Positions 3,631-46,776 of a DNA stretch of 64,000 bases are shown piece after piece. This DNA comes from an uncultured Gammaproteobacteria bacterium (lineage in GTDB: Bacteria; Patescibacteriota; Patescibacteriia; UBA9934): the NCBI GenBank assembly GCA_964452565.1, contig CAYVLY010000001.1, positions 224,351 to 288,350 on the forward strand, read 5' to 3'. Under the pieces are notes generated by a model. The model saw only the letters and a list, made by a program, of their open reading frames with translations, was not told the DNA's origin and made no database searches. The translations under genes were made by a program, and so were the position numbers. How positions within the stretch are numbered: the first letter of the stretch is position 1; the number at the start of each line of letters is the position of its first letter.

Positions 3631-4845
3631 TTAGTTAACTAAATATAATTGGGGATCAACTGGTATTCCATTTTCACGAATCTCAAAGTGCAGATGAGGT
3701 CCTGTTGAAAATCCTGTACTTCCCTCATATCCGATGACATCCCCCCTGCTCACGTATTGATCAGCACCAACAGCTGCGCTACTCAAGTGAGCATAAAGTG
3801 TCGCATAACCATTAGCGTGGATGATCATCACATAGTTTCCATAAGATGATCCATATCGACTCCAAGCAACATATCCTGGTGCAGCTGCAACAACAGGTGT
3901 CCCCCAGTCAGTAGCAATATCAAGTCCGCTATGCTCCCAAAGATGTCTAAACGGATACGTTGGATCATGGAATGTTGCAGTTATTATTCCATCCATTGGC
4001 CATGTGAATACTGTTTCACCACCATACTCATCACTCTGAGAAATTACATCATCCATCTCAGCTTGAAGCGCTGCAATCTGCGTTGAGATATACTGCTGTT
4101 CCTGTCGCATTTCACTTAAAAGCACCATGTACTGCGCCTCTGAGGACTCAGTATAAGCTAGCAGTACATCTTTCGCCTGTGCCTGTGACTCAAGAACAGC
4201 CATTTGCGACTCAAGCTCACTTTCGAGCAACACTAGATCCTCAAGTCGATCCTCTTGATCAGCCTTATTCTGTTCTAAACGCTCTTTTGTTTCCTTGGTC
4301 TGATCAAGAGCGTTCTGAAGTTCTGCATTGATAGTTTCGAGATTCTCAACCTCAGAAAATAACTCATTAATATCATTTGAACTAAACAGAACCTCGATGA
4401 ATCCGATCTCGTCATTCTTATTCAACTCAAAGATCATCTCCTTGAGAATCTCCTTTTGCACAGCGATCTCAGCCTCTTGCTCTTTAATCTGCTCTTCCAA
4501 AAGCTGCACCTGAAGCTCCTGGGCTTCAATCTCCACCTGAGTTGCTTCAATGTCAAGCTCAGTCAATGCAACCTGGTTTTCGATCATTGCAATGTCAGTT
4601 TCAAGACTAGCAGCCTCTGAAGCATATTGATTGACTTTATCGCGATATTCATCGATCTTACTGTTAATCTGATCGATCTGTGACTTTCGCGCACTGATCT
4701 CATCCTGAAGCTCATTTAGATCATCTGCCTGTGCAAAAGTAAAGTCCGGAACAGAGCCATTTGCATACACAAAACCCGCACCCGACAAGCTCAGTACGGT
4801 TGATAAAACCAACACTACACCAGTAATGCGTTTTAATAAATTCAT
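3631..4845 (-). CDS. M23 family metallopeptidase (murein hydrolase activator/EnvC-NlpD-like) with N-terminal signal peptide and long coiled coil
   Basis: C-terminal LytM motifs (HxxxD ... HLHFE). The coiled-coil region is Q/E-rich. Confidence 0.8.
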   Translation of the reverse strand: MNLLKRITGVVLVLSTVLSLSGAGFVYANGSVPDFTFAQADDLNELQDEISARKSQIDQINSKIDEYRDKVNQYASEAASLETDIAMIENQVALTELDIEATQVEIEAQELQVQLLEEQIKEQEAEIAVQKEILKEMIFELNKNDEIGFIEVLFSSNDINELFSEVENLETINAELQNALDQTKETKERLEQNKADQEDRLEDLVLLESELESQMAVLESQAQAKDVLLAYTESSEAQYMVLLSEMRQEQQYISTQIAALQAEMDDVISQSDEYGGETVFTWPMDGIITATFHDPTYPFRHLWEHSGLDIATDWGTPVVAAAPGYVAWSRYGSSYGNYVMIIHANGYATLYAHLSSAAVGADQYVSRGDVIGYEGSTGFSTGPHLHFEIRENGIPVDPQLYLVN

Positions 4846-4869
4846 CTGATTCTATTATATCAGACTTGC

Positions 4870-4904
4870 GTCCCCCTTCCCAAGGGGGACAATAAGGGGT
4901 TGCC
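4870..4904. repeat. GC-rich palindromic element unit (GTCCCCCTTCCCAAGGGGGAC + AATAAGGGGTTGCC)
   Basis: Member of the dispersed family, intergenic between the M23 peptidase start and the 760-aa gene end. Confidence 0.7.
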
Positions 4905-4981
4905 ATTATCAGGTTGAACTATTTCTGAAAGCATGAATGCCGCCCTAGGCCATAGGCCCTGGACGGCGTGAGTTTCGCGTT

Positions 4982-7261
4982 TTACTTCCCTTCTTCACGC
5001 TCCTGAGCGAGCGCTAGGACTACGGTACGCATGGCTGTGTGCAGATCTCGCTGGCGCCGCGCCTCAGCAGTTTCCCTTTCGAGACGCTCGACTTCAGCAC
5101 GTGCCCTTGCGAGTTTCTCATCCTTGCGTGAGACCAACTGTTCGGCCTGCCTCGCTATGATTTGGATCTGCCTGCGGACTCCTTCCTCCATCAACGGTCC
5201 AAGCGTCTGCTCGAGCACAGTTGCAACCGGCCCTTCGACATCCCCTACCCGAATCCTAGGCTTAGAGACCTGGACCCGAGTTGCCGCATGTGATGCGCTC
5301 TCATCGATGAGCCTGGGCATTTCACTTTGCAGACATGCCCGTACAGCTGCTTCGATTGCCTCAGTCGGCACTTCAGGCTCAGGCACCTGGATCTGCTCAA
5401 GACGTGCGGCAAGTAGCTCATCAAGCAAGCCCCTTCCCTGCTCTCCGAGCAGAAATTCTTCAAGATGACCGCGAAGCGCCTCTCCTGACGGCTTCGCAAG
5501 TTCCAGCTCAGCCGGAGGATCTTCCGACGTAGCTACCATAGGCGAATTGCCAACAGGTGGTGCTACATCTTCGGCTGGAGCCACGGACGACTCAGGCGGA
5601 GGCGCCGGAGGATCACTGGAATCATCATCTGCTGGCGCCGGGGCTTCAGGCTCTTGCGCGGCCTGTGGGATTTCCCAGGCTTCCAGGTCGATAAGCTTCT
5701 CATGAACTACGCTAGCAGCCAGCTCGCTGATCGTACAACCGACACGTGATATGAGATCACGTATTACCTGTCGGTCATATGGCTTTTCTGGATTTCTATG
5801 CGGTACCAGGTTGACACCTAGCACGATACGCCAAACCGTACGGTGACGCGCAATCTGACCCAGCTTCTCCAGTAGCCCAACCTTCATCATAGCGTTGAGC
5901 GCCGCCGATGCGTTTTTCTGATTAGGCCATACATACCTGATCACTGATACTGCCAGCTCGGTTGGTAAACGCGCCGTGGATGGCCACCCGTGTTCCTTGA
6001 TCAGAATCAGAATCATGAGTTGCATCATTTCATATGCAGTTTTCGTGAACCCACTGACTTTGATAGAATCTTGCCCATCCGGATCCACTGGATCCTCGGA
6101 TGGCTCAGGCGGAGGCAGATCGTTGGCAGGCGGTGCTGCACCCTCAACGGGACTCGCGAGAGGCTCGAGCTGATCATCAGCCGGGTCCTCAGGCGTGGGC
6201 GGCGGAGGGTCACTAGGACCATCATCTTCCGGCGGAGGCGGATCGTCAGCTGGCTCTGAACCAGCAGGCGGCGCATCCTCGGGCGCATCCTCGGGTGCCG
6301 GCGGCGCAGGCTGATCGGCAGGCTCTTCAACCGGAGGCTCTTCTGGCTGCTTGCCAGGCGTCACCGGCTCTTCCCAATCCTCAACAAACAAAACGCCTCG
6401 ATCAACAGTCTGTTCTCCCATGGCACGTACCCGGTCGTCACTATAGACACCCAGGAATCCCCGAATGTCTGCCTCGCTGAACTCGACTTCTGGTCTGTAC
6501 TTCGGGATAAGACGTTTCCCGGGCAGGACACGCTGAATAGACAACCCACCCGAAGCACAACCAATTGGCTCAGTTAGGCTCTTTTGCTTCATGCCATCCA
6601 AGGGGACTCCTGGATTACCCGTCCTCGGATAGCAATAGCCCAAAATGTCATGCATGAACCTACTCGGGAGACGGGTAGCCGTAGGCCAATCGTATTCCGC
6701 AATCAGGATCGCAAGCATGAGTTGCATCATCTCGTAGGCCGACTTGACTGCCCCACTGACGACGATAGGCAGCTCTTTCTCCGCCTCAGGAAGATCCTCA
6801 GGCGGCTGATCAGCCGGTGGTTCCTCAGGTGGCGCTGGATCTTCAAGCGGAGGGTCACTAGGACCATCGTCTGCCGGTGGAGCCGGTGGTTCCTCAGGAT
6901 CATCAACTGGCGGCACCGGATCTGCTGGCGGCAAATACCGCGGGTCCTGCTTCAACTCATAACCATTGATGCGCGACTGCGCATCAGCGGCCTCGAGAAC
7001 CTGTACAATCACTGCTGGATCGATCGATCCGTCCAGATCAATGACCGTAACGTAGTTTGTGGCCCAATGTCTGAAACGCCTTACCAGCTGTCTTGGAATA
7101 TCATTACCACCTGCTTCTACCCATTTCAGGTATGCTCTCCATGTTCGCGGAGCGCCATCGTGTTTCAAAGCCTTCTCGAGCATGAAACCATAGCTCCAGC
7201 TGTTACGGCTCTGGATAGCGCGCTTGGTCTGCTCGGTCAGCTCGATTTCTGTCGTAGTCAT
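4982..7261 (-). CDS. hypothetical 760-aa protein with two homologous internal domains separated by Pro/Asp/Glu-rich low-complexity linkers, C-terminal coiled coil; GC-rich
   Basis: Long ORF at about 62% GC. The repeat is seen as VSGAVKSAYEMMQLMLAILIAEYDWPTATRLP versus VSGFTKTAYEMMQLMILILIKEHGWPSTARLP. The start at ATG 7261 (MTTTEIE) is chosen because a terminator hairpin at 7287-7320 separates it from the sigma gene. Confidence 0.55.
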   Translation of the reverse strand: MTTTEIELTEQTKRAIQSRNSWSYGFMLEKALKHDGAPRTWRAYLKWVEAGGNDIPRQLVRRFRHWATNYVTVIDLDGSIDPAVIVQVLEAADAQSRINGYELKQDPRYLPPADPVPPVDDPEEPPAPPADDGPSDPPLEDPAPPEEPPADQPPEDLPEAEKELPIVVSGAVKSAYEMMQLMLAILIAEYDWPTATRLPSRFMHDILGYCYPRTGNPGVPLDGMKQKSLTEPIGCASGGLSIQRVLPGKRLIPKYRPEVEFSEADIRGFLGVYSDDRVRAMGEQTVDRGVLFVEDWEEPVTPGKQPEEPPVEEPADQPAPPAPEDAPEDAPPAGSEPADDPPPPEDDGPSDPPPPTPEDPADDQLEPLASPVEGAAPPANDLPPPEPSEDPVDPDGQDSIKVSGFTKTAYEMMQLMILILIKEHGWPSTARLPTELAVSVIRYVWPNQKNASAALNAMMKVGLLEKLGQIARHRTVWRIVLGVNLVPHRNPEKPYDRQVIRDLISRVGCTISELAASVVHEKLIDLEAWEIPQAAQEPEAPAPADDDSSDPPAPPPESSVAPAEDVAPPVGNSPMVATSEDPPAELELAKPSGEALRGHLEEFLLGEQGRGLLDELLAARLEQIQVPEPEVPTEAIEAAVRACLQSEMPRLIDESASHAATRVQVSKPRIRVGDVEGPVATVLEQTLGPLMEEGVRRQIQIIARQAEQLVSRKDEKLARARAEVERLERETAEARRQRDLHTAMRTVVLALAQEREEGK

Positions 7262-7286
7262 CTCTCGCTCCGTTCGTTTTGGAAGT

Positions 7287-7320
7287 AAAAACGCTCTGCT
7301 TTCGCAGTGCGTTTTTTTAC
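7287..7320. terminator. intrinsic terminator hairpin (AAAAACGCTCTGC-TTTC-GCAGTGCGTTTTTTT) downstream of the ECF sigma gene on the minus strand
   Basis: Inverted repeat flanked by A/T runs on both sides. Confidence 0.5.
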
Positions 7321-7342
7321 CATTTTTATTACATTTCGTCAA

Positions 7343-8218
7343 TCAAGACTCTAATTCTGCTAGCCTCTTTTTTGCAGCAGCTAACTCTTCCTCTGCCTGC
7401 TTTAATTCCTTATCATTGAGCTCTATCTGGTCATCCAGTGCTGATATTAATTCCCCCAAGAAAGCCAGATACGCATCATCCCCCCTCAATTCAGCCTCTT
7501 GCTGCTCAAGCTCCTGTTCTGCCACCTCTGGTTCTTCCACTTCCTCAACTTCAGGCTCTTTGATCGATTCTTCGGCAACTGATGACTCTGGTTTTATAAG
7601 TCCAGCCTCCAAGGCCTCGGGTTGCAATAATCTCTTAAGCCTTTCTCTAGCATAGTACAAACGAGACATAACCGTACCTTCTGGAATATCCATTATCTCT
7701 GCAATTTCTTTATAGGCACGACCCTGGACTTCGCGCAATATAATAACTTGCCTTTGCTGTGGTGATAATTGACTCATTGCCCATTGAATCCTCTCTCCCA
7801 ACTCCTTTCCATGTACCTGATCGAAAGGCTGGTCAGGTCTTGTGTGTAAATCCCCTTCAATCTCAGTATCAATACGTTCATCAAACTCGGATGCTTGCCT
7901 TTTTTGCAGCCTACGAATCTCATCTATCGTTGCATTTATTGCGATTCTGTAAATCCAGGTTGAGAATGAAGCATCTTTTCGAAATCCACCAATATTTTTA
8001 TAAGCCTTTAGCATTACGTCCTGAGTAAGATCCTCTGCCTTTGCCCTATCTTTAATCATTCCAACAATATGAGCATAAATACGCCCACGATAAAGCTTTT
8101 GAAGCTCTTCCCAGGCCTTATGCTTCTCGTGTTCACTGCCTGATTCTTGAAGGATCGCAATTAGCTCCTTCTCTTGCGGATCCATCTCTCTTGGCTCTGT
8201 TTTTTCTCCCTTAGTCAT
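7343..8218 (-). CDS. ECF-type RNA polymerase sigma factor with about 100-aa acidic coiled-coil C-terminal extension
   Basis: Sigma-70 region 2 (DLTQDVMLKAY ... FSTWIYRIAINATIDEIR) and region 4 (YKEIAEIMDIPEGTVMSRLYYARERLK). Paralogous to the GC-rich sigma at 29314-29961. Confidence 0.8.
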   Translation of the reverse strand: MTKGEKTEPREMDPQEKELIAILQESGSEHEKHKAWEELQKLYRGRIYAHIVGMIKDRAKAEDLTQDVMLKAYKNIGGFRKDASFSTWIYRIAINATIDEIRRLQKRQASEFDERIDTEIEGDLHTRPDQPFDQVHGKELGERIQWAMSQLSPQQRQVIILREVQGRAYKEIAEIMDIPEGTVMSRLYYARERLKRLLQPEALEAGLIKPESSVAEESIKEPEVEEVEEPEVAEQELEQQEAELRGDDAYLAFLGELISALDDQIELNDKELKQAEEELAAAKKRLAELES

Positions 8219-8219
8219 A

Positions 8220-9683
8220 TTAACTTAATAAATCGATCGCATTATTTATCCTCTCAATTCCCTTTTCCTTTCCAAAAACCCACAAAAGTTCAAATGGTGA
8301 CGCAGACTTAGCAGCGCCAGAAAGAGCTACACGTAAAGGCCACAAGACATTACCGTTTTGCAGATCATTCTTTTCGATATAACCGCGCACTTCCCTTTCG
8401 ACCTCCTCAACATTTACAAAGTGCGCATCTTCCAGTGATTTGATAAACTCCTTGACCCCTTCAAGCTGAGCCTTGGCATCAGCCGCATCTGCCTTTTTCC
8501 AAACAAGAATCTCAGGATCATACTCAAACTCAGCGACATATGGCTCAAGCTTATCTTGAAGCTCATCTAATCGATTCACGCGCTCGCGTTCGACCACTAG
8601 AGCCCTCCTGATCATTTCATTATCAAGATCTACACTGACAAATGATCTTGCAACCTCTACAACCTCTTTAACCTCTAATTCTTTTATATACTGATTATTC
8701 ATCCAATCCAACTTTTCTATGTTCATCACGGCCCCGCTCTTTTTAACCTTGGAAAGATCGAATAGTTTGATGAGCTCATCAAAAGTATAAATCTCCCGAT
8801 CCCCTGTTGGGTTAAAGCCGAGCGTGCCAATGAAGTTTAAAAGCGCCTCAGGTAGATATCCTTTTTTGAGATAATCCTCAACAGCTACATCTCCTTGCCG
8901 CTTTGAAAGCTTTGTTTTATCAGGATTCAAAAGCAGTGGCACATGTGCAAACGTTGGCATATCAAATCCAAGCATGTTATAGAGCATTATGTGCTTTGGT
9001 GTTGATGAAAGCCACTCTTCACCGCGGATGATATGCGTAATCTTCATGAGCGCATCATCAACAACAACTGCTAGATGATAAGTTGGAAAGCCGTCAGACT
9101 TGAGAATCACCTGATCATCAACATCTTCATTTTTGAACTTGACCTTTCCACGCACAACATCCTCAAATACAGTCTCACCCTCAGGAACCTTCATACGCAC
9201 AACATGGGACTCGCCAGCATCGATCTTTGCTTTAACATTATCATCTGATAAGTCGCAACAGTGCCGATCATACTTTGGAGTTTGCTTTGTGGCACGCTGC
9301 TTCTCGCGCATCTCATCAAGTCGTTCTTTTGTACAGAAACAAAAGTATGCGTCGCCTTGTTCGATCAGCTTATCGATATACGGCTTGTAAATGTCGAGCC
9401 GCTTAGACTGAACATATGGGCCATGCTCGCCTTTTTCAATTATTGATCCATCTTCTTGTAAAACAGGACCCTCGTCAGGTTCAATCCCTACATCTTTAAA
9501 GGTCTTGAGGAGATTCTCAAGCGCACCTTCGACCTCACGGGTCTGGTCAGTGTCTTCGATTCGAAGTACAAACTGCCCGCCAGTCTGCTTTGCGAGAAAA
9601 TAATCAAAGAGCGCTGTGCGGAGCGTTCCGATATGAATATATCCTGTTGGACTAGGAGCCAATCTTGTTCGTGCTGGGGTCAT
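8220..9683 (-). CDS. gltX: glutamyl-tRNA synthetase
   Basis: HIGH-type motif PSPTGYIHIG, KMSK-type LSKRQG, 487 aa. Confidence 0.9.
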   Translation of the reverse strand: MTPARTRLAPSPTGYIHIGTLRTALFDYFLAKQTGGQFVLRIEDTDQTREVEGALENLLKTFKDVGIEPDEGPVLQEDGSIIEKGEHGPYVQSKRLDIYKPYIDKLIEQGDAYFCFCTKERLDEMREKQRATKQTPKYDRHCCDLSDDNVKAKIDAGESHVVRMKVPEGETVFEDVVRGKVKFKNEDVDDQVILKSDGFPTYHLAVVVDDALMKITHIIRGEEWLSSTPKHIMLYNMLGFDMPTFAHVPLLLNPDKTKLSKRQGDVAVEDYLKKGYLPEALLNFIGTLGFNPTGDREIYTFDELIKLFDLSKVKKSGAVMNIEKLDWMNNQYIKELEVKEVVEVARSFVSVDLDNEMIRRALVVERERVNRLDELQDKLEPYVAEFEYDPEILVWKKADAADAKAQLEGVKEFIKSLEDAHFVNVEEVEREVRGYIEKNDLQNGNVLWPLRVALSGAAKSASPFELLWVFGKEKGIERINNAIDLLS

Positions 9684-9757
9684 ACTATTTGCTTATCTTC
9701 CATCTCGAGCGAGCGGAGCGAGTCTAGAGATCCCTCGACTTCGCTCGGGATGGAGAA

Positions 9758-10609
9758 TTAATTTATACTTAATAACTGCTTAATAATCTCAGGCACGGTT
9801 TGTCGAACTGCCCTAACAAATCGTTTTGATCGAATCGTTTCGACAATAACGTACGCTGGAAACACAATACTAGCTTTTAGAATCCTACCAATCCTGCGTG
9901 GTTCTATCAATACACGCCAAACCCATTCAAGGCCTGCTTTACGCATCCATTTTGGGGCCCTCTTGTGCCTTCCAGAAATCATATCAAGCGCTCCGCCAAT
10001 ACCGATCATTATCTTTACGCTTGGAAGCTCATCCTTAAACTTCTGCATGAAGAACAATTGCTTTTTATGACCAAGCGCGATAGCGATGATATCGGGTTTG
10101 ATTTTCGTGATTTGATCAATAATACCCCCATCAATCGAGATCTCACCATCCTCGATCTTAACTACGCCTGGATCAATGAAATCAATGTGAACTTTTGAGG
10201 GCAACTTATTAATTGCCTCCTTTGCCACTTTCTTATCACCTCCAAACAATAAAACCCTCTTCCCTTCTCTCCCACATAATTCGATCAGCCTCTGAAGCGT
10301 ATCAACTCCTGTATGGCGGTTGCTTAACTTTCGATCAGTTAGAGCTGAAGTTGCAAATCGAAGCGCAACGCCATCAGGAAGGTTTAGGTTGGATTCTTGA
10401 AGCGCTGATCGAAATACGCCTCCCCCTTTCCCAAGGGGGGATACGGGGGGGTTGCCTGCATTCTTATCTCGAATCGCGTCAACTAACATTTCAGGATTTG
10501 GTGTTGCTATACATTGGGTCTGACCCCCACGCAGAAAAGAAACAAGCCGAGCTTCAAGTTCAGCCTTAGTTAAATCATCAATTCGAATATCAAAAAGCTC
10601 ATGCCTCAT
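9758..10609 (-). CDS. WecG/TagA/CpsF-family glycosyltransferase (N-acetylmannosaminyltransferase-like)
   Basis: C-terminal family signature GGALDMISGRHKRAPKWMRKAGLEWVWRVLIEPRR. Carries an in-frame copy of the palindromic element (encoding PLGKGGGV). Confidence 0.75.
   Translation of the reverse strand: MRHELFDIRIDDLTKAELEARLVSFLRGGQTQCIATPNPEMLVDAIRDKNAGNPPVSPLGKGGGVFRSALQESNLNLPDGVALRFATSALTDRKLSNRHTGVDTLQRLIELCGREGKRVLLFGGDKKVAKEAINKLPSKVHIDFIDPGVVKIEDGEISIDGGIIDQITKIKPDIIAIALGHKKQLFFMQKFKDELPSVKIMIGIGGALDMISGRHKRAPKWMRKAGLEWVWRVLIEPRRIGRILKASIVFPAYVIVETIRSKRFVRAVRQTVPEIIKQLLSIN
10419..10456. repeat. GC-rich palindromic element unit inserted in-frame inside the WecG/TagA-like CDS
   Basis: CCTCCCCCTTTCCCAAGGGGGGATACGGGGGGGTTGCC. 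The ORF reads through it. Confidence 0.7.
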
Positions 10610-10610
10610 A

Positions 10611-11021
10611 TTAGCGTCGCCAGAATGCGATAAGTGCGATTACTCCTCCGAGCAGATCCATTACAAAATCCATCATAGTATCTGCAATGCTTGGCTGATG
10701 CTTGAGCTCAATAGCCTTTGGAAAGATCTCATCAAGTAGAAACTCGTGCAGTTCCCATAGGATTCCAATTAGGGATACAAAACCAAGAACTATTCCTGGA
10801 ATCAACCACCAACTCAGGTGCTTTTGAAACCAACCCTTGAACTTCACATCATCTACACCCTCATTCCAAATCGCCAACCCGAGTGCACCCATGGCAAATC
10901 CCCCACCAATGTGCATTGGTATGTCATACCAATCAAGAATGTCGTAAAGCCCAAATAAGAGCCCCACAAAGTGAAAGACTAATACAATGGCAATAACCAA
11001 AAAAGCTTTTTTTAGTGTCAT
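10611..11021 (-). CDS. hypothetical small integral membrane protein
   Basis: 136-aa ORF with 3-4 hydrophobic helices, AT-rich codon usage like the backbone. Confidence 0.45.
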   Translation of the reverse strand: MTLKKAFLVIAIVLVFHFVGLLFGLYDILDWYDIPMHIGGGFAMGALGLAIWNEGVDDVKFKGWFQKHLSWWLIPGIVLGFVSLIGILWELHEFLLDEIFPKAIELKHQPSIADTMMDFVMDLLGGVIALIAFWRR

Positions 11022-11084
11022 AACAACCCTATTCTACGCTAAAATTCGAGGACAATCAATCCAGCACCTGGCAGCTGAACTTAG

Positions 11085-11111
11085 TTAGTTGAACTAAATT
11101 AGTTCAACTAA
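11085..11111. promoter_or_regulatory. 27-bp near-perfect palindrome TTAGTTGAACTAA-A-TTAGTTCAACTAA upstream of clpB (candidate operator)
   Basis: Perfect 13-bp arms. The GTTGAAC/GTTCAAC core is shared with a second palindrome at 42991-43027. Confidence 0.45.
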
Positions 11112-11140
11112 ACTGTGGATAAAATCTATTAACTCCCGTA

Positions 11141-11183
11141 AGTTGACGAAACTTAATTAGCACTCTATACTTGGGAGTGCTAA
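11141..11183 (+). promoter_or_regulatory. sigma-70-like promoter (TTGACG-N17-TATACT) overlapped by a perfect CIRCE element TTAGCACTC-N9-GAGTGCTAA (HrcA operator) for clpB
   Basis: CIRCE consensus matched 18/18 at 11157-11183. The -10 hexamer lies inside the spacer. Confidence 0.75.
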
Positions 11184-11194
11184 TTATACCAATT

Positions 11195-13834
11195 ATGATG
11201 CCGAATAACTTTACCTCAAAATCCCAAGAAGCCATTCAAGTGGCGCAAATGTTAGCCAATGAAAACGGTCAGCAAGCTGTCGATCCGATTCACTTACTAG
11301 CAAGCTTGATAAACCAAGACGACGGCATTATTCCTGCTCTTTTGCAAAAGATGCAGGTAGATACAAGTCGCCTCGTCAATCAAGTTGATCAGATCCTACA
11401 GACCCTTCCAAAAAACTTTGGATTCAACCAAGGCGGTATGGGACAGGTTCTCCTCTCCCCTGCCCTAGCAAAAACTCTTCAAAATAGCGCCAAGCAAGCA
11501 AAGCAATTTGGCGATGACTTTATTTCTACTGAACATCTATTTTTGGCTTTAATGCAAAACAAGCAGGTTGCCCAATTTCTATCCACGCAAGGAATTGAAA
11601 TAAAGGCAACTCTTGAATCTCTAAAAGATGTTCGCGGAAATCAAAAAGTGGATTCCGCAGATCCAGAGGCAAAGTTTCAGGCACTTGAAAAATACAGTTT
11701 GAATCTCACAGAATACGCACGCCAAGGAAAGCTCGATCCTGTAATCGGGCGTGATGAGGAAATTCGTCGACTTATGCAAGTTCTGGTTCGACGAACTAAG
11801 AACAACCCCGTGCTTATCGGAGAGGCTGGAGTTGGTAAAACAGCGATTGCTGAAGGTCTTGCTCAACGCATCGTAGCTGGTGATGTCCCTGAAATGCTCA
11901 AAGACCGTGAGATAATCGCGCTTGACCTTGGAGCACTTGTTGCAGGAACAAAGTTCCGTGGTGAATTTGAGGAGCGTCTAAAGGCTGTTGTTAAAGAAAT
12001 CGAGCAATCTGATGGAAAGATGATTTTGTTTATCGATGAGCTTCACAATCTCGTTGGCGCTGGAAAGGGTGAAGAAAGTCCAATGGACGCAAGCAACATG
12101 CTTAAACCTGCGCTTGCTCGTGGTGAAATGCGCGTTATCGGCGCAACAACTTTAAAGGAATATCAAAAACATATTGAAAAAGACGCTGCACTTGAGCGTC
12201 GATTCCAACCCGTGATGGTTGAAGAGCCGTCTGTACCTGATACGATCGCAATTCTTCGAGGAATTAAAGAGAAGTACGAAATTCACCATGGAGTCCGCAT
12301 TAGCGATACTGCACTAGTTTCAGCCGCAGAACTTTCAAACCGCTACATCACAGATCGATTCTTGCCAGATAAAGCGATCGATCTTATGGATGAGTCTGCC
12401 GCTGCCCTTCGCATGCAGATCGACTCCATGCCTGAGGACCTTGATCGACTTAAGCGTGAGGAAATGCGTCTTGAGATTGAGAAGCAGTCACTTTTAAAGG
12501 AAAAAGATAAGCGCTCAAAGCAACGTTTGGAAGAAATTGAAAAATCAATTGGTGATCTTAAAGAGCAATCATCTGAGCTTGAACTTAGATGGAAGAACGA
12601 AAAATCAATAATTCAAAAAATCAGGGATCTTAAAGACGAAATCGATAAGCTTACTAATGAATCTGATATTGAAGAACGTAAGGGTGACCTTCAAAAAGTC
12701 GCAGAGATTCGATATAGCGTGATTCCTAAAAAGCGCAAGGATCTTGAAAAAGCTCAAACTGAACTGAAGAACTTCCAAGAAGAGCGTGGTTTGCTTAAAG
12801 AAGAAATCGGCCCAGAGGAGATCGCTTCTATTGTTTCACGATGGACTCATATTCCGATAAGTAAAATGCTTCAAGGTGAGATGGAAAAGCTTGCAACCAT
12901 GGAAGAAGATCTAAAGGCGCGCGTTGTAGGTCAGGACGAAGCTATCACTGCGGTGAGCAATGCGCTGCGACGCTCGCGTGCAGGCATATCAGAAGAAAAA
13001 CGTCCAATCGGATCATTTATATTTCTCGGGCCAACTGGAGTTGGTAAAACTGAACTTGCAAAGGTTTTGGCAGATTTCATGTTTGACGATGATGAGGCGC
13101 TTATCCGCGTGGACATGTCTGAGTATATGGAAAAGCACAGTGTCAGCAAAATGATTGGATCGCCTCCTGGATACATTGGACATGATGAGGCTGGTCAGCT
13201 TACTGAGAAAGTCCGCCGACGCCCCTACTCTGTGATTTTGTTCGACGAGATTGAAAAGGCGCATCCAGATGTCTTTAACATGCTTCTGCAAGTACTTGAT
13301 GATGGGCACCTGACAGATGCCAAGGGTCGACGGGTAAACTTTAAGAACACGATCATCATTATGACTTCAAACATTGGATCAGAGTTTATCCTGAACTCTG
13401 AGAAGGCTGGTGGGATTGGTTTTGATGATGAGACTGTGCGTGAACACAATGAATCAAATGGAGTTAAGGATCGAGTAATGGAAATGATGCGGGAACAGTT
13501 CAAGCCAGAGTTTTTGAATCGTGTTGATGAGATTATCTTCTTTCATGCACTTTCTGAAAATCACATCGCTGATATTGTTCAGCTTCAGGTCGATCTTGTT
13601 GCGCAGCGTTTGAGTGAACAAAAACACATAATCGTGAAGGTAACTGAACGTGCAAAGAAATATCTTGCTAAAGAAGGATATGATCCTCAGTATGGCGCAC
13701 GGCCGCTAAAACGAATAATTCAACATCAGATACTTGATCCGCTTGCCATGAAGATAGTCCAGAGTGAAATTCCGGAGGATAGCGCAGTAACAATCGATGT
13801 AATCCAAGGTGAAGTAAAAATCACAGTTCGATAA
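11195..13834 (+). CDS. clpB: ATP-dependent chaperone ClpB (two AAA+ modules plus middle coiled coil)
   Basis: Two Walker A motifs ([16 protein letters not shown]), a long coiled-coil M-domain, about 880 aa. Start is set at the ATG pair at 11195 (the ORF track starts at an upstream TTG). Confidence 0.9.
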
Positions 13835-13840
13835 ACAATA

Positions 13841-13880
13841 GGACCTATAAGACATACTGGACTTATGGGTCTTTTTTGAT
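13841..13880 (+). terminator. intrinsic terminator of clpB (GACCTATAAG...CTTATGGGTC + TTTTTTGA)
   Basis: Hairpin followed by a T-run directly after the clpB stop. Confidence 0.6.
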
Positions 13881-14436
13881 CTTGACACATTTTCACCCAA
13901 ATGCTTTAATATCTTCACGTCCATTTTGGCTAAGAGGAGTCCCAGCGAGTGCCGCGTCACCAGGAGGTACGCGCCGCGCGTCGGAAAGCTGCAATCCTGC
14001 AGTAGTCGACACTGGCCTTTGAAGCCAGCAGCAACCAAAGCTCAAGGGATCGAGATAGCGACCGAGCCTCTTCTCAGCCAGGCTGCGGGGTAAAAGCAAA
14101 CAAGCTGATACCACCACAAACCCGGAGAGTCCTGGTTCCCAGGACGCAGACTACGGAGGACGGTGAGTCCCAACATGCGCGGTCTGACCGGTTCCTCGTC
14201 ACGTTCACCCCCATGGGTCCCTGTTCGTGGAGAAGTCGTGTGCGGTGAGGAAATTCGCATCTTCACCACCCCGCAGCCATCCTTTTCTCGTAAATCCTTC
14301 GTGGCATCTTCCCTGCCATCGCCAGCCTCCTCGCCTGAGGTCGACGCCACGTGGGTACAGAGCCACCTTTGCCTCGCACTGGTGGCTCTCTACTTTTTGG
14401 CGCTAAACAGCTAGCGTCTATTTTTTATAAAAAGAT

Positions 14437-14457
14437 ACCAACGTTTAACGTTGGTAG
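14437..14457 (-). terminator. 21-bp perfect palindrome TACCAACGTTTAACGTTGGTA followed on the minus strand by a U-run; identical copy at 62118-62138
   Basis: Identical sequence plus similar flanks (ATAAAAA) at two loci, each downstream of a minus-strand gene. Confidence 0.5.
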
Positions 14458-14682
14458 TGCAGGTACCACATCTTATTGAAATCCGCAACTGTGGATAACA
14501 CGTCCAGAACCCGGTGCTGGACTTGATTTATAAAAGCGAAACTCCTTTATTTATAAGATATTCTTTCCAAGGTTGAACCTTGAGTATTAGAGCTAATAAA
14601 ATAAGGATAAGCGAAACCCCCGCAGCGCGTAGCGTGCAGGGGTCACGGAAGAAGGGTTGAAGAAGGGGCGCGGGGCGTGGGA

Positions 14683-15189
14683 CTAGTCGTTGTCGATGTC
14701 GAGCCCGTTGTTGCGGACCCAGAAGTTGTCAACGTCTTCGTCTTCCCACTGGATCACCAGGACATCGCCCTGGGGCACCTCGTCGGAGAACATGATCTGG
14801 GGCGGCCCGTTGTCGAAGGCTACCTCACCCATGCACTCAGCGTCGAAGTGGCTGGGAACGCCGTAGAACAGGATATCCGCGTAGACGCCGTCCGTGTAGA
14901 CATCGCCCACCTGGCTGAACTCAGTCTCCCCATCATCGAAGATGCAGGTGACTTCCATCGAGCTCACGGTATAGCCCTGGTCGGCGAACTTCGAGTCCCA
15001 CATGATCCACACGGCATCGTCGGTCGTGCCGTAGTAGCTGCCACCGTTGCCGAGGCCGACATCGATGTCGCAGTCCCAGACGCCGTCCGCATTGTAGCCA
15101 CATGAGGCACCGCCAAACTCGAAGCACCCGGGGGTAGCGACGGTGGACAGGGCGAGGACAGCGGCGAGCAGGGTGTTGATCTTGGTCAT
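14683..15189 (-). CDS. hypothetical secreted Cys-containing protein (signal peptide, possible lipobox ATPGC); GC-rich
   Basis: RBS GGAGGAG upstream, N-terminal hydrophobic signal, acidic mature domain. The overlapping plus-strand ORF is judged spurious. Confidence 0.5.
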   Translation of the reverse strand: MTKINTLLAAVLALSTVATPGCFEFGGASCGYNADGVWDCDIDVGLGNGGSYYGTTDDAVWIMWDSKFADQGYTVSSMEVTCIFDDGETEFSQVGDVYTDGVYADILFYGVPSHFDAECMGEVAFDNGPPQIMFSDEVPQGDVLVIQWEDEDVDNFWVRNNGLDIDND

Positions 15190-15270
15190 TTTCTCTCATC
15201 TCCTCCTCGCCGCAGCGAGGCTGTTGGGGTCACTGGTGCGTCATGGTCGAAAGGTTCGACTCACATACGC

Positions 15271-15340
15271 TCCTATAGCATAGGAAAAAGTGGAGTGAGA
15301 GATATTTAAGGTGCGCTCTTTCCTATGCTTTAGGAGTGCT
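15271..15340. promoter_or_regulatory. two related palindromic boxes (TCCTATAGCATAGGA and TCCTATGCTTTAGGAG) about 45 bp apart upstream of the secreted-protein gene
   Basis: Box 1 is a perfect palindrome (CCTAT-AGC-ATAGG). Box 2 is the inverted near-copy. Confidence 0.4.
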
Positions 15341-15430
15341 ATGAGCTACTCTCAGATTTCGATGCTTGATCGAAGTCTGGGTGTAGCCCACCCGACGAGA
15401 TGCCGGGATGGGCGAATGAGAAAGGTGAGG

Positions 15431-15697
15431 CTAGCGGCGCCACTTGCGGAAGAGCCGGGTGCGCTTGAGTGCCTCGCGGATTCCGAGCTCGCGGCTGTTC
15501 TCAAAGTTCCTGACGGCCATGACCTGACCTTGCCGGATCTTTTCGAGTCGGCCGAGCTCGTTGCGGATGGCCGCGTTCAGCTCGTCGAGCTGGCTGCGAA
15601 GCCCTCTTGAGAGCTGCATGGGGCTGCCGTGACCAGGCAGGCTCACCCTTGCAGTCGTAGTGTAGAGAGCGACGAGCGTTGTTTCGATGCCTTTCAT
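15431..15697 (-). CDS. hypothetical 88-aa protein (GC-rich island)
   Basis: GGAG RBS 6 nt upstream of the ATG. No recognisable motif. Confidence 0.3.
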   Translation of the reverse strand: MKGIETTLVALYTTTARVSLPGHGSPMQLSRGLRSQLDELNAAIRNELGRLEKIRQGQVMAVRNFENSRELGIREALKRTRLFRKWRR

Positions 15698-15842
15698 GTC
15701 ATCTCCAAACTACCCTTGAGGCAGCTGGTGTTAGGGAGCGTTGTGCTTCCCACCAAAGGTCTCGATACTATTCAAGCTCTTTGGTGGGCCCACTCGATCG
15801 AGGATCGAGTGGGACGAGGAAGGAGGGGGAAGGAAGAAGGTG

Positions 15843-16007
15843 CTACATCAGGGCCTTGACCGCGGCGTCGAGCACGTGGCTGTGCTTGGTGCTGCCGACG
15901 AGGGCGAGCCACGCGATGGGGGCGATCATCAGTCCAGCAACGGCCAGGCCGCTCTGGATGGTGTGAGCCTTCATGCGGACGTGGAAGAGGACGGTATCGA
16001 GGGTCAT
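15843..16007 (-). CDS. hypothetical 54-aa single-pass membrane peptide (not in the ORF track, below its 60-aa cutoff)
   Basis: AAGGAG RBS 7 nt upstream of the ATG at 16007. The ORF encodes MTLDTVLFHVRMKAHTIQSGLAVAGLMIAPIAWLALVGSTKHSHVLDAAVKALM. Confidence 0.3.
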   Translation of the reverse strand: MTLDTVLFHVRMKAHTIQSGLAVAGLMIAPIAWLALVGSTKHSHVLDAAVKALM

Positions 16008-16460
16008 GGTGTTCTCCTTGGAGGGTCGAGTGTTTCAATCTGGCTAGATTACTATCTATTCAGGTTGAAGCACTCGACTACCTATAAAGAAAACCGCCTG
16101 AGTTTCTCGAAAATTGAGAGAACCAGGCGGTTTCCTACCACTCAGTAGATCCTTCGACTCGGCCTTTGGCCTCGCTCAGGATGACGAGTGATTTGCTTCT
16201 TTACCCAGAAGCTTGGGCTCTCTCTAGTTGTAATGTTCTGATCAAATCTGCCTTGCGACTCCTTGATCTTTACATGTAGTACTATAGCACAAAATGACAA
16301 GTTTGTCAAGAGCTGAGGCTGGATTTTGGGCTAAAATTGGCATATATTCTATAGGTAGTAGTAAGTAGGTAGTAGGCAGTAGATGGGCAGCCAATACATA
16401 CCCGGACTTATCTACTTATTACTTCCTACTACCCACTACCTGCGCTATAATAAGGCCACT

Positions 16461-20820: not shown

Positions 20821-21759
20821 ATGCTAAAGACTGTCTTTTTTGGAACACCCGAATTTGCAAAAAAATTCCTTGCTGCACTTCACGCAGATGAGGATTTTTC
20901 AATTGAAGCAGTGGTTTGTCAACCTGACAAGCCAGTTGGTAGAACAAAGACATTAACAGAGCCTGAGACCAAGATATTTGCTCAGGAAAATCACATCCCT
21001 GTTTTTCAACCAGAGAATCTTAGAATTTCAAATCTTTCTCAATATCTTAAAAGACTGGACGCTAACCTGTTTGTGATAATCTCTTATGGAAAGATAATCC
21101 CGCAGGAAATTCTCAATATTCCAAGACTTGGAACTATCAATGTCCACCCTTCCCCTTTGCCAAGATATCGTGGTCCATCACCAATACAATCAACAATCAT
21201 GAATCAAGAATCTGAAACTGCGGTTACCATCATGTTAATTGATAACAAAATGGACCATGGTCCAATATTGTCGCAAGAAAAGATTAAGATGGAACCAAAT
21301 GAAACGTCGACTAGTTTACGTGAGAAAGTCGTTGAGATTGGAGCCCCACTTTTGATTGATACGATTAAAAAATACGAAACCGATAAGATCAGGCCGCAAG
21401 AACAGGATCATGACTCTGCGACTTTTTGTAAAATGTTAACTAAGTCTGACGGTAATATAGACTGGAGCCGATCAGCTGAGGAAATCGATGCACAATATCG
21501 AGCACTCATTGAATGGCCCGGAGTTTATACAATTTGGAAGCGGGAAGATGATGATCCAACTATCAAAATCCACGAACTGCGAATCTCAGATCGGAAACTA
21601 GAGCCTGGAAAAGTAGAGATCGAGGGTAAGCAAATGTTTATCGGGACCAGTACTGACGCAATCGAAATAATCGAGTTGCAGCCTGAGAACAGCTCAATCA
21701 TGAAAGCCGAGGCCTTCATTCAGGGGCATCGAGAGATCCATGGTTCAATTCTAGGCTAA
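20821..21759 (+). CDS. fmt: methionyl-tRNA formyltransferase
   Basis: N-terminal formyltransferase domain (VFFGTPEFA ... NVHPSPLPRYRGPSPI), conserved def-fmt order. Confidence 0.9.
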   Translation: MLKTVFFGTPEFAKKFLAALHADEDFSIEAVVCQPDKPVGRTKTLTEPETKIFAQENHIPVFQPENLRISNLSQYLKRLDANLFVIISYGKIIPQEILNIPRLGTINVHPSPLPRYRGPSPIQSTIMNQESETAVTIMLIDNKMDHGPILSQEKIKMEPNETSTSLREKVVEIGAPLLIDTIKKYETDKIRPQEQDHDSATFCKMLTKSDGNIDWSRSAEEIDAQYRALIEWPGVYTIWKREDDDPTIKIHELRISDRKLEPGKVEIEGKQMFIGTSTDAIEIIELQPENSSIMKAEAFIQGHREIHGSILG

Positions 21760-21863
21760 AGCTGGTACAATAGTTGACAGATTAGCATTTCCATGCTAAT
21801 CTTCTTTGTTCTTTGAAACACAGGTGGGTAATTCTATTCAACCGCGTACGGAAGGAGAACTCC

Positions 21864-22322
21864 ATGAAACGCACCCTCACCCTGATCGTAATCCTGGCCA
21901 TTCTGGCCGCCCTGACCGGCTGTCCTAAGCAGACGCCCCCGGTGGTCTACAGCGTAGTGCCGGAAGTGACCAACGTCGAGCAAGCCGAGATCTCGCACCA
22001 CGACTACAATTGGGTGATCTTCGGTGCCGATAGTGTCACTATCGATCTGATCACCGAGAGCAGCTTCATGCCTCACACGGGCCAGCTTCACGAAGGCGTA
22101 CAATTCAATGACCAGTACTGGGTTATCCCCACGAACCTGAGCTCTGATCTGATCTACGAGATCCGCTGGAACGGATACGAACTAACCGCCAAGGATCATG
22201 ACGGCAAGTGGCTGTGTGTGGACCTCTGGGGTTGGTCCACAGACGGCGAGACCAAGCTCGCTGGTCCCAACGTCTACGGCCTGGTCTACGTCATCACCGA
22301 CGACATCGACAAATGCCAGTAG
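21864..22322 (+). CDS. hypothetical lipoprotein (GC-rich); signal peptide MKRTLTLIVILAILAALTGC
   Basis: Strong RBS GGAAGGAGAACTCC-ATG. Lipobox LTGC. The N-terminus is near-identical to the lipoprotein at 49096. Confidence 0.55.
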   Translation: MKRTLTLIVILAILAALTGCPKQTPPVVYSVVPEVTNVEQAEISHHDYNWVIFGADSVTIDLITESSFMPHTGQLHEGVQFNDQYWVIPTNLSSDLIYEIRWNGYELTAKDHDGKWLCVDLWGWSTDGETKLAGPNVYGLVYVITDDIDKCQ

Positions 22323-22371
22323 GCCATAGTTCATCTCGATCGTACTGGCGAAGAAACACAATCTTCGCCAC

Positions 22372-22420
22372 CCTCCTGTGTTTCAAACGAAAAAAACCAG
22401 CTTATAGCTGGTTTTTGGTT
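22372..22420 (+). terminator. tandem hairpins (GAAACACA...TGTGTTTC; AAAAAACCAGCTTATAGCTGGTTTTTGG) after the lipoprotein gene
   Basis: Perfect stem plus T-run. Confidence 0.6.
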
Positions 22421-24054
22421 TATTTCATGTTTGAAGTCGCAATTGGCACGGGCTGCTTTATGATTTTTTTCTTTTGAACTTCCTCAATGCCACTACGCCT
22501 CTTTTTTACAAACCCCTCCCAATCTATAAACGGCAAAACAAACAGCATCAAACTCAATCCAATCGGGTGATTTAAATATGGTGAGAACGTATGTGTCACA
22601 AATATCCCAACAATTCCAGCTACCATCCCCATTACAAGCCATTTATAGCCCCTGGATTGCGCTGTAAACCACCCAACACGCAAAAGTGACATAATATACC
22701 AAGCAAAGCCCGCGAGTCCCAGCAACCCCATTTTCAACCAAATATCATGCCAACCCCATTCAAATCTATAAGTAGTGTAAGCACCCCCATCTTCCTGCTC
22801 TAAAACTCGAGGATCTTCTGATTCATAAGTGACAGTTTCACCAAATCCTGAGCCTAGAATTGGGCTTGCGACTATCTCCTCCATCATTGGCTCAAGCAGA
22901 TTCCATCGACTAACAACCGCCTCAGAGCGACCAGTCTCTGACGATGTTTCAAAAAAGGCAGCATCGCTTAGATCTGGCCTTTCAGGAATGGGTATTTGAA
23001 CAATCATGATGATCACCAAAAATCCAACAATCGAAATGATTACACTGTTAAATGTCCTGGTTACAATCCAGACCTTTGCTCTGCCAAAAAACCAAGCGCT
23101 CACAAAAAGCATTAAACCACCAGCTATAATCCCCAAAATAAAACTTCTTGAAAGACTCAAGAACATTGTCATTATTGAAAATCCAAACACCAATCCAATA
23201 AACCACGGCATCTTACTCTTTCGCCACAAGTACATCATCGCTGAATAGGCTACAAGCACTCCAACCATTACCACTGTTTGTGCAGGCATGAAGATGCGAT
23301 ACCAATAATCACCTTCTATTGCAAGTCCGTACTTCAAAAGTGAGCTATTAAGTAAACTTGGCTCAGCACCAACAACCTGCAAAGTCACCTCAGCCAATCT
23401 TGAATCACGAACAAAAGTATAAAGGTTATGCAAATTGTCACCGTCAATGTGTGTGAATGCATAGGCTAATGCGATCGTAAAGCCAACAATCCATAAAACC
23501 GATGCGAAGAGCACTTGAAGGAGTTGCCTTTTCTGAGTCTGACCCCACTTGATCGTCAAGATTGGCAATAGGTATCCGATAACTACATAGCCATTAATAT
23601 CATCAAACGCGGCTAATAGATCATTTTGGATGAATCCAATGAATGTTCCGAGAGCTATAGCAGTGATCAATACAAGCCAGGGGACATCACGCATCCAGTT
23701 AAATCGAAAGGCAACCCCCTCTACCTCCCCCTTCGGAAGGGGGAGAACCTTATACAGCCACACGGCCATTACGATCACGAAAATCAGCATTCTGATCGAC
23801 AAGGAGAATCCAAACAACTCCACGTCAAGTAAATGGCCGTGGCCACCAACAAATATCTCAGCGAATGCTATCAACAATCCATTGATCGGCGACCGCCACG
23901 TTAATATCAAGGTGAAAACCCCAAATACGATGAACAAAGGCAATTCAAATCCAGTATCGCGCACAAAAAACGCTAAGGCATGCATAATACCGATCAAACT
24001 CAGTGTGATCCACATTGTATCTCCGATGAACTGCTTTTTGATATTCATAGTCAT
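22420..24054 (-). CDS. O-antigen ligase/polymerase-family (Wzy_C-like) polytopic membrane protein
   Basis: More than 10 predicted TM helices. Lies in the polysaccharide cluster and contains an in-frame palindromic element (encoding LPKGEVEG). Confidence 0.55.
   Translation of the reverse strand: MTMNIKKQFIGDTMWITLSLIGIMHALAFFVRDTGFELPLFIVFGVFTLILTWRSPINGLLIAFAEIFVGGHGHLLDVELFGFSLSIRMLIFVIVMAVWLYKVLPLPKGEVEGVAFRFNWMRDVPWLVLITAIALGTFIGFIQNDLLAAFDDINGYVVIGYLLPILTIKWGQTQKRQLLQVLFASVLWIVGFTIALAYAFTHIDGDNLHNLYTFVRDSRLAEVTLQVVGAEPSLLNSSLLKYGLAIEGDYWYRIFMPAQTVVMVGVLVAYSAMMYLWRKSKMPWFIGLVFGFSIMTMFLSLSRSFILGIIAGGLMLFVSAWFFGRAKVWIVTRTFNSVIISIVGFLVIIMIVQIPIPERPDLSDAAFFETSSETGRSEAVVSRWNLLEPMMEEIVASPILGSGFGETVTYESEDPRVLEQEDGGAYTTYRFEWGWHDIWLKMGLLGLAGFAWYIMSLLRVGWFTAQSRGYKWLVMGMVAGIVGIFVTHTFSPYLNHPIGLSLMLFVLPFIDWEGFVKKRRSGIEEVQKKKIIKQPVPIATSNMK
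23710..23745. repeat. GC-rich palindromic element unit (reverse orientation) in-frame within the O-antigen-ligase-like CDS
   Basis: GGCAACCCCCTCTACCTCCCCCTTCGGAAGGGGGAG. Confidence 0.7.
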
Positions 24055-28062: not shown

Positions 28063-28164
28063 AAAGTACAACTATAATAGCGAAAATTGGGCTAAAAAGC
28101 AAAACGCTCCGCACCTCGAGGGGTACAGAACGTGGGACGAGCCAGAATGACAGAGTGTGCATGA

Positions 28165-28458
28165 TCAATCTCCACACGTGAGACGCGGCCTGACGAATTC
28201 TCTGAGCATTTCGTCGACTTCCAACCTATGAAGGAGTACCTTAGCCTGAGCTGTCAATTCCGTAACTCTCGCGATTTCGATCATACCCTGGCTATCCAGA
28301 GGTTCGCCAGGACGATCAGCCCGGTCAAGATAGGAGCCCTTACCATGGCACAGCGGGCACTCCGAGTCTGGCGCCTGCGGAATATACAAATCGGTCAAAG
28401 CTATCGTGCAAAAGCATGTCACACGCACCAGCCGATAGCGACCGTGTTCGTCAAGCAT
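28165..28458 (-). CDS. hypothetical zinc-ribbon protein (CxC...CxxC), GC-rich; possible anti-sigma partner
   Basis: AAGGAG RBS. Cysteine pattern VTCFC ... CPLCHG. Lies downstream of an ECF sigma gene but separated from it by a terminator hairpin. Confidence 0.35.
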   Translation of the reverse strand: MLDEHGRYRLVRVTCFCTIALTDLYIPQAPDSECPLCHGKGSYLDRADRPGEPLDSQGMIEIARVTELTAQAKVLLHRLEVDEMLREFVRPRLTCGD

Positions 28459-28585
28459 CCTTTTTCTCCTTGAAATGGTTCATTTTCAAGATAGCACACG
28501 GATCTTATAAAGCAAAACGCCCGGTACCATTCGGTAACCGGGCAGACCCGCACTGGTCGGTGTGGGCGTACGATACAGCGAACTC

Positions 28586-29155: not shown

Positions 29156-29313
29156 ACCGCCTCTCTCAGACTTGGTTAATGTTTTCTTTGAAGGGGTTGA
29201 AAAGACCGTATATTAAAAAACCGCCTATGTCAACAATAGAATTTGAAGCCAAAAAGCAAAGAACCGCGCCTCAAGGGACGCGGAACGTAAAATGACGCGA
29301 GAGGATCAGGACG

Positions 29314-29961: not shown

Positions 29962-30050
29962 GTGCTCTCCTCTCGAGCCTCGGGTTGTACAATGGGACAC
30001 CCCAGATTAGCACAGAAAGGTGGGATTGTCAATGATACGATCAGATCCGA

Positions 30051-30088: not shown

Positions 30089-30147
30089 TTGTTTAAACGA
30101 AAAAACCGGCCGTATAACGACTGGTTTTTGCTTGTGTTTTGATCAAA

Positions 30148-46759: not shown

Positions 46760-46776
46760 TCGCACCACGTTTCCTC

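Follow-up and report, generated by a model that had tools for sequence, protein, structure and literature searches.

An orphan protein with two predicted winged-helix modules, encoded beside an extended ECF sigma factor in an uncultured bacterium

The stretch of DNA considered here, in what follows the window, comprises 64,000 nucleotides of contig CAYVLY010000001.1 (positions 224,351 to 288,350 of the forward strand; GenBank assembly GCA_964452565.1) from an uncultured bacterium of the lineage Patescibacteriota. On its minus strand, at 4982..7261, lies a gene for an orphan protein, situated just downstream of a gene for an extracytoplasmic function (ECF) sigma factor (7343..8218). An initial annotation, made from the sequence alone, had singled out the orphan gene for its high GC content, an internal tandem duplication and its position behind the sigma gene. 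The gene proves to be real and under selection, and we consider below the tentative proposal that its product acts together with the neighboring sigma factor.

The orphan gene and its modular product

The coding sequence is complete, stop codon included, and opens with an ATG at 7261, with a GGAG ribosome-binding site 7 nt to its 5' side in the spacer sequence (7271-7268, minus strand); it encodes 759 residues, the 760 first given corresponding to these plus the stop codon. Long chance open reading frames (ORFs) arise in GC-rich DNA, and several overlapping antisense ORFs of 60-234 residues are found here, so that a spurious frame deserved consideration, as did an assembly chimera as the source of the GC jump; both had been named in the initial annotation as ways in which its reading could fall. 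Neither holds. Compared with an orthologue in a related genome (P0009, in genome L002), synonymous sites are saturated (proportion of synonymous differences, pS, 0.87), whereas the proportion of nonsynonymous differences (pN) is 0.22 in the C-terminus to 0.33 in the module, and the claimed frame is therefore under purifying selection. The orthologue carries the same module and C-terminus at the protein level. An identical protein is encoded both in the NCBI contig (709,517 bp) and in the Logan assembly of run SRR8146440, where one contig matches window positions 4759-16289 at 100% (11,531 nt). Since this assembly, the second from the same sample, shows no difference at either gene junction, and the syntenic orthologue in L002 shows the same step in GC, the jump is not the product of a chimera. 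With a proper ribosome-binding site as well, the spurious-frame and chimera readings are refuted, their remaining probability being negligible, and ORF 4982-7261 is a genuine coding gene with purifying selection acting on its protein.

The GC content of the coding sequence is 56.8%, rather than the approximately 62% first reported, a value that fits the linkers only (60-67%); the adjacent sigma gene, put at about 45%, measures 43.5%. The high GC has two sources, namely amino-acid composition, seen in the GC of first codon positions (0.71 overall, 0.80-0.95 in the linkers and 0.95 in linker 1), and the GC of third codon positions (GC3), which is 0.53 vs 0.38-0.41 in backbone genes. The same GC3 offset is found for P0009 (0.43 vs 0.27-0.39 for its own genome). 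The protein as a whole is acidic (isoelectric point, pI, 4.5; net charge -60), contains no transmembrane segment by the Kyte-Doolittle 19-residue mean (maximum 1.39), and with 4 Cys in total has no HxxxCxxC, CxxC or other Cys/His motif.

Its architecture is modular, all parts being encoded on the minus strand. The N-terminal domain (residues 1-105, 6947..7261; pI 8.05) is near-neutral, missing in P0009 and predicted to be helical, with five helices at a predicted local distance difference test score (pLDDT) of about 50 in AlphaFold2; no similarity to it was found in the window, in L002, in L008 (the genome of a second relative, P0010) or to P0010 itself. It is followed by an acidic Pro/Asp/Glu linker (linker 1, residues 106-162, 6776..6946), which is predicted to be disordered and carries a DDGPSDPP motif, 22 Pro and a net charge of -16. 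Repeat module 1 (residues 163-305, 6347..6775), delimited by repeat alignment with a profile match of 1.5e-59, consists of a basic predicted winged-helix core (residues 163-250, pI 8.7) and a tail of ~55 residues ending in WEEP. Linker 2 (residues 306-397, 6071..6346) again contains DDGPSDPP, with 33 Pro, zero Lys/Arg and a net charge of -28, and leads into repeat module 2 (residues 398-540, 5642..6070), the closer copy to the single module of P0009, with a basic predicted winged-helix core (residues 398-482, pI 10.2) and a tail ending in WEIP. Linker 3 (residues 541-592, 5486..5641; 14 Pro, net charge -10) has the motif DDDSSDPP, with DSSQDEP as its counterpart in P0009, and completes the set of three Pro/Asp/Glu-rich linkers described initially. 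The C-terminal helical region (residues 593-759, 4985..5485) consists of four short helices and then a long Arg/Glu-rich helix (residues 678-757).

The internal tandem duplication is well supported: a 134-residue alignment pairs residues ~166-300 with ~400-535 (32% identity, E 2e-25), and its Smith-Waterman score of 235 compares with 35 +/- 6 for 500 shuffles. Each repeat is ~135 residues in size and not, as first estimated, about 100. At the DNA level the copies form direct repeats that keep the reading frame, spaced by 702 and 645 nt and 70-71% identical, and a 22-nt stretch encoding DGPSDPP is identical between linkers 1 and 2. A conserved W-E-x-P closes each module, directly before the acidic linker. 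The N-terminal domain and the N-terminus of P0010 were also considered as extra, degenerate copies of the module, for which the comparison gave no support. In the full-length AlphaFold2 model, based on 3 sequences, residues 678-757 form a continuous helix (pLDDT 64-86), and the model (pLDDT 40) is otherwise uninformative. This helix of ~80 Arg/Glu-rich residues (ARARAEVERLERETAEARRQRD) had been described as a coiled coil. The helix itself is confidently predicted; a continuous heptad pattern is not significant, being equal to shuffles (P about 0.5-0.6), which leaves the coiled coil unproven, and the segment may form a lone helix, a coiled coil with interruptions, or a helix that binds a partner.

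A fold could be proposed for the module. AlphaFold2 predicts for module 2 three helices (5-25, 35-45 and 52-61) and a beta-hairpin (strands 65-72 and 75-80), i.e. the order of elements of a winged helix-turn-helix domain, a three-helix bundle and then a beta-hairpin wing, with two short helices after the hairpin. The model rests on a 4-row alignment, and its confidence is therefore moderate (mean pLDDT 62, 62-79 in the winged-helix part; predicted template modeling score 0.59). Tentative structural matches of the predicted fold include MCM8, ORC/Cdc6, MarR, Rep initiators (plasmid and phage Rep winged helices among them), TcpK, MukF, JetA and JetB. The winged-helix fold itself is common. The cores are basic in P0009 (pI 9.5) as they are in modules 1 and 2, and the invariant positions over the four module copies (W-P, R-L, P, N, L, G) lie mostly in the core; a conserved basic recognition helix was not found across these copies. 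Up to E 10, Pfam gave no match to the complete protein, to its modules taken singly, or to its relatives P0009 and P0010; NCBIfam, PHROGs, PADLOC and a PDB sequence search returned no meaningful match and a PDB profile search only chance-level ones. The initial suggestion of a winged-helix-like module is supported at the level of the modeled fold and finds no counterpart among curated helix-turn-helix or winged-helix families; that such a module might bind DNA or a protein partner through its third helix or wing is hinted at, indirectly, by the basic cores alone. Any likeness to known winged-helix domains (MarR/ArsR-type, MCM8/ORC/Cdc6, MukF, plasmid Rep) lies at the level of the predicted fold. 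The orphan modules differ from these families in falling within no Pfam or NCBIfam profile, in adding a conserved tail of ~50 residues ending in W-E-x-P, in a recognition helix that is not conserved in basic residues, and in being set apart by acidic disordered linkers of 60-90 residues.

Relatives, flanking signals and the neighboring sigma factor

A remote-homology search, as proposed in the initial annotation, was conducted exhaustively with phmmer against 1.84 billion representative proteins and recovered two relatives only, P0009 and P0010. The former (300 residues) combines a single module with an acidic linker and the C-terminal helix seen in the orphan protein; the latter (396 residues), from the ~52% GC genome L008, has a single module at its C-terminus and lacks the C-terminal helix. 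The family therefore has three detectable members among ~1.8 billion representatives and is restricted to a very small lineage. A word-indexed homology search with the whole protein gave 8000 candidates, none of them significant, and did not recover the query itself, probably because it was swamped by Pro/Glu words; the 90% cluster representative for the query is an unrelated 52-residue fragment, and the same search with the module alignment found nothing. Pattern scans for the module in genome contigs returned the P0010 locus only, and scans of metagenome contigs for the module and for the C-terminal helix gave no match. No relatives were found in a scan of viral contigs or by tblastn against phage and plasmid records, and PADLOC reported no defense-system match.

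In L002 the orthologue occupies a syntenic slot, in the order ClpB, DUF2238, WecG, GltX, ECF sigma (291 residues), P0009, M23 peptidase, FtsQ-like, Alr and SerRS, which was seen in at least six contigs (five JGI metagenomes and one Logan run). Between the two genomes the backbone proteins ClpB, M23, GltX, Alr, FtsQ and DUF2238 are 75-91% identical, the ECF sigma factors 49%, and the repeat modules of the orphan protein, compared with P0009, 33-37%. The last 64 residues of the orphan protein are its best-conserved part, and their identity of 64% to P0009 amid such fast evolution suggests a conserved interaction surface.

In both genomes the orphan gene lies directly downstream of the sigma gene, with a hairpin and a promoter-like element between them. 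The conserved intergenic region (7262..7345, minus strand) comprises an 81-nt spacer that is ~83% identical to the L002 spacer, well above either flanking coding region. It contains, across both genomes, a promoter-like element of the form TTGAC(G/T), 17 nt, TGgTAAAAA (in the window TTGACG at 7342-7337 and the -10 at 7319-7314), the ribosome-binding site, and a terminator-like hairpin (7313-7290, minus strand, T-run to 7287; fold -18.3 kcal/mol, z -2.7). The hairpin has 10 bp, a GNAA/GTAA loop and a T-run, and shows one compensatory A-T to T-A change, while three more stem substitutions keep or improve pairing; a simple terminator scanner missed it owing to one internal mismatch. Just 3' of the stop codon of the orphan gene, a GC-rich 13-bp hairpin (4939..4967, minus strand) is kept in L002 with a compensatory C-G to T-A change and is probably the terminator of the gene. 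Rfam, searched at a permissive threshold, gave no RNA family in the orphan-gene region or the next GC islet. Because promoter-like element, ribosome-binding site and terminator hairpins are conserved, the gene looks like its own transcription unit, apart from gltX-sigma, an arrangement that a comparison of two distinct sequences can do no more than suggest.

The sigma gene (7343..8218, minus strand; 291 residues) is, as first stated, of the ECF type: only sigma-70 regions 2 and 4 are present, above cut-off (PF04542 at 1.1e-16, PF08281 at 1.3e-16; TIGR02937 at 112 bits vs a cut-off of 42.9). Its start lies 1 nt past the gltX stop in the window, and 6 nt in L002. Beyond sigma region 4 the protein has a C-terminal extension of ~90 residues, with no Pfam domain past residue ~200, in which acidic sequence (net charge -22) gives way to a heptad-repeat helix whose a/d positions are 86% hydrophobic (P 0.003). 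Among the 120 homologues listed, this extension is common only to the L002 orthologue; the 118 others span 54-69% of the query. The nearest outside homologues inspected (L010 and L012) stand after polA and are followed by a 422-446-residue protein without a Pfam match, which in L010 has, when translated, a C-terminal transmembrane segment, like membrane anti-sigmas. A TTG-start ORF (4982-7342) that extends the orphan frame runs in frame with the sigma gene, and read-through of a TGA codon could have fused the two; this was rejected, as the fusion frame is absent in L002 and the genes of the window read normally with TGA as a stop, so that the frame is probably a coincidence.

GC-rich islets and the question of foreign origin

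The orphan gene lies within one of about ten islets of 52-56% GC in a window of ~43% GC, which together total ~16 kb, about a quarter of its length (4776-7300, 13826-16225, 21676-22450, 28051-30200, 43076-43950, 45826-48100, 48876-50775, 51601-52700 and 56876-58150). Islet GC3 is 0.52-0.85 vs 0.38-0.41 in the backbone, and almost all of the encoded proteins are orphans without a Pfam or PHROG match. At least two islets, those in the part of the window that shows synteny with L002, keep their position and their high GC in the two genomes while their sequences diverge far more quickly than those of the backbone. Horizontal gene transfer, whether recent or old, is a poor fit for such fixed-position islets.

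These observations raise the possibility that the orphan gene is foreign GC-rich cargo, e.g. a decayed replication-initiator-like or mobile-element gene without an integrated host function. Its raised GC3, the number of islets with mostly orphan proteins, the plasmid and phage Rep winged helices among the fold matches, the ~52% GC genome of its only other relative, P0010, and an ECF sigma factor in one of the islets that shares 70% identity with its counterpart in a GC-rich genome all lend themselves to this explanation. It nevertheless appears improbable to us: the orthologue holds the corresponding slot of a genome with 75-91% identity in the backbone proteins, selection on the protein is purifying, both genomes retain the regulatory elements on either side of the gene, and phage records, viral contigs, plasmids and defense systems yielded no relatives or matches, a combination that makes an origin in a foreign selfish element less likely. 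Nor do tRNA or integrase genes flank the gene; flanking repeats were not searched for.

Several other features of the islets and the window were recorded. Two further ECF sigma genes (29314-30000 and 28586-29155) lie in the islet at 28165-30000 (minus strand), followed by a 97-residue ORF with a CPLCHGKG motif (28165-28458). The product of 29314-30000 is the one that resembles the sigma factor of the GC-rich genome; its identity to the sigma factor of 7343-8218 is 55%. In the GC-rich genome, the related sigma gene stands between polA and a gene whose product has a C-terminal transmembrane segment. No ORF in the window deviates more in codon usage than 14683-15189 (minus strand; GC3 0.85), in the second islet, the acidic product of which has an N-terminus like a signal peptide and a lipobox-like TPGC. 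A 171-nt stretch in the same islet (15218-15388) is 85% identical to L002, the surrounding islet being barely alignable; it has no Rfam match and contains inverted repeats, CCTATAGCATAGGAAA ... TTTCCTATGCTTTAGG, between divergent ORFs, which together with its conservation makes it probably a conserved regulatory region. A run of three small GC-rich ORFs (131, 149 and 181 residues) at 45862-47359 (plus strand) shows weak mutual homology, has in common the motif AG-[IM]-P-x-x-V-I-x-x-[IV]-F-P-E-[GC]-P, and looks like a tandem orphan gene family. The sole tRNA in the window, tRNA-Ser (anticodon TGA; 51666-51742), lies at the left edge of islet 51601-52700 and could be an integration site. The palindrome CCCCTT-NNN-AAGGGG has 14 matches in the window vs 0.9 expected, with copies at 2057, 2142, 4873, 10424, 23728, 30069, 54787 and 54824, two of them at islet borders and some inside ORFs. 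A unit of ~110 nt at 2052-2159 matches several intergenic sites in L002 with 83-95% identity, which suggests an element like repetitive extragenic palindromes or miniature inverted-repeat transposable elements, common to the lineage. In L008, a stretch of 64-70% GC (7084-9189) encodes a 701-residue protein without a Pfam match and adjoins a cluster of five T4SS-pilin-like genes.

A possible soluble partner of the sigma factor

We propose, tentatively and at somewhat less than even odds, that the orphan protein serves the atypical ECF sigma factor encoded next to it as a dedicated soluble partner, or regulates it. Four lines of evidence point this way: the conserved adjacency of the two genes; their joint fast evolution against well-conserved neighbors, with the C-terminal helix of the orphan protein retained; the co-occurrence of the protein with the heptad extension unique to this sigma factor; and its apparent replacement of the putative membrane anti-sigma that adjoins the nearest sigma homologues. 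The charge pattern, with basic winged-helix cores and very acidic linkers, is consistent with the proposal. Mechanistically, a soluble, cytoplasmic protein composed of a lineage-specific helical N-terminal domain, two modules, three acidic tethers and a C-terminal Arg/Glu-rich helix would meet a sigma factor that may be made constitutively alongside gltX and ends in an acidic amphipathic heptad helix. The C-terminal helical region might dock on the sigma factor, possibly on its extension, while the tethered winged-helix modules would bind DNA or RNA polymerase, so that the protein could hold back or direct the sigma factor in place of the putative membrane anti-sigma encoded near its closest homologues. 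Contact with the sigma factor, DNA binding and the direction of regulation are what we infer from the arrangement. The neighborhoods of ECF sigma genes typically encode a regulator, and soluble anti-sigmas unlike those described are expected to exist (PMC7826278).

A number of observations speak against such a partnership. The terminator-like hairpin between the two genes means that they are probably not co-transcribed; no anti-sigma domain (zf-HC2, RskA and similar) was matched in Pfam or NCBIfam, and the protein has neither the HxxxCxxC zinc motif nor the transmembrane helix; and the sigma extension has no sequence similarity to the C-terminus of the orphan protein (homology between the two was rejected, as alignment scores equal those of shuffles). 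No sigma gene lies near P0010; the question raised initially, whether homologs always neighbor an ECF sigma gene, is thus answered positively for two closely related genomes and negatively for the distant relative. Gene order is kept over the whole ~17 kb compared between these two genomes, and as they are related and their order is conserved in general, adjacency alone is weak evidence. Furthermore, ECF sigma factors with C-terminal extensions usually have no separate anti-sigma (PMC7826278).

The same facts leave room for a different function, which we regard as unlikely in itself and nearly as likely as a partnership with the sigma factor, namely that the protein binds DNA independently of it, as a transcription regulator specific to the lineage or as a factor that organizes the nucleoid or chromosome. 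The C-terminal helix would then oligomerize and present several basic modules on flexible acidic tethers, which might auto-inhibit or tune DNA binding, and the position next to the sigma gene would be merely the conserved gene order of two close genomes. Matches of the predicted fold to DNA-binding winged-helix domains, the basic cores, the gene's own conserved promoter-like element, ribosome-binding site and terminator, the position of P0010 away from any sigma gene and the general conservation of order over ~17 kb all agree with this view; it is harder to reconcile with conserved residues that lie mostly in the core and include no conserved basic recognition helix, with a very acidic protein overall, with the C-terminal helix rather than the winged helix being best conserved, and with the failure to match any Pfam helix-turn-helix or winged-helix family. 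The two winged-helix modules in one chain, and MukF, JetA and JetB among the fold matches, recall KITE proteins (ScpB, MukE, JetB) and their SMC systems. Unlike in KITE proteins, however, the P0009 orthologue has one module only, and the orphan modules are not contiguous, being ~230 residues apart with a 92-residue linker between them; no ScpB or MukE profile match was obtained, and no kleisin or SMC gene lies nearby, the neighbors being the sigma gene and an M23 peptidase gene.

Returning to a partnership with the sigma factor, the closest comparison is with the soluble ECF anti-sigmas, among which RsrA and ChrR have a zinc-binding class I anti-sigma domain and NepR and CnrY are short and helical. 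Like these, the orphan protein is encoded immediately downstream of an ECF sigma gene and is soluble, helical and fast-evolving together with the sigma factor; unlike them, it has no anti-sigma domain or HxxxCxxC motif and is probably a separate transcription unit. To our knowledge, winged-helix modules occur in no described anti-sigma. The sigma factor, for its part, resembles extended ECF sigma factors in its ~90-residue stretch beyond sigma region 4, extensions being the second commonest regulatory mode of ECF sigma factors in general, with ECF41, ECF42, ECF56 and ECF238 as examples (PMC7826278). Its extension is, however, acidic low-complexity sequence with a heptad helix, and not SnoaL, TPR or Cys-rich as in such groups, and in contrast to extended ECF sigma factors, which are usually partnerless, it co-occurs with a conserved downstream gene.

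The overall architecture, i.e. winged-helix modules, acidic tethers and a terminal helix beside an ECF sigma factor with a putative coiled-coil tail, could be matched to no described system. More speculatively, and with the odds clearly against it, such a sigma factor and a tandem winged-helix/acidic-linker protein may together form an undescribed soluble sigma-control module that replaces the membrane anti-sigma in a small-genome lineage and couples sigma sequestration or delivery to DNA binding. Equally speculative is that the gene may also exemplify a class of GC-rich, fast-evolving orphans that some force, such as GC-biased conversion or repeated import from a GC-rich partner organism, keeps in place in a low-GC genome. 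Should the protein be merely a lineage-specific DNA-binding protein, it would be of local interest only. If it does regulate the sigma factor, the known anti-sigma and co-sigma mechanisms would gain a class of new structure, in which a winged helix is combined with acidic tethers, and the case would show a way for a reduced genome to replace the membrane-signaling version. Whatever its function, this three-member family offers a clean example of extreme rarity combined with clear selection.

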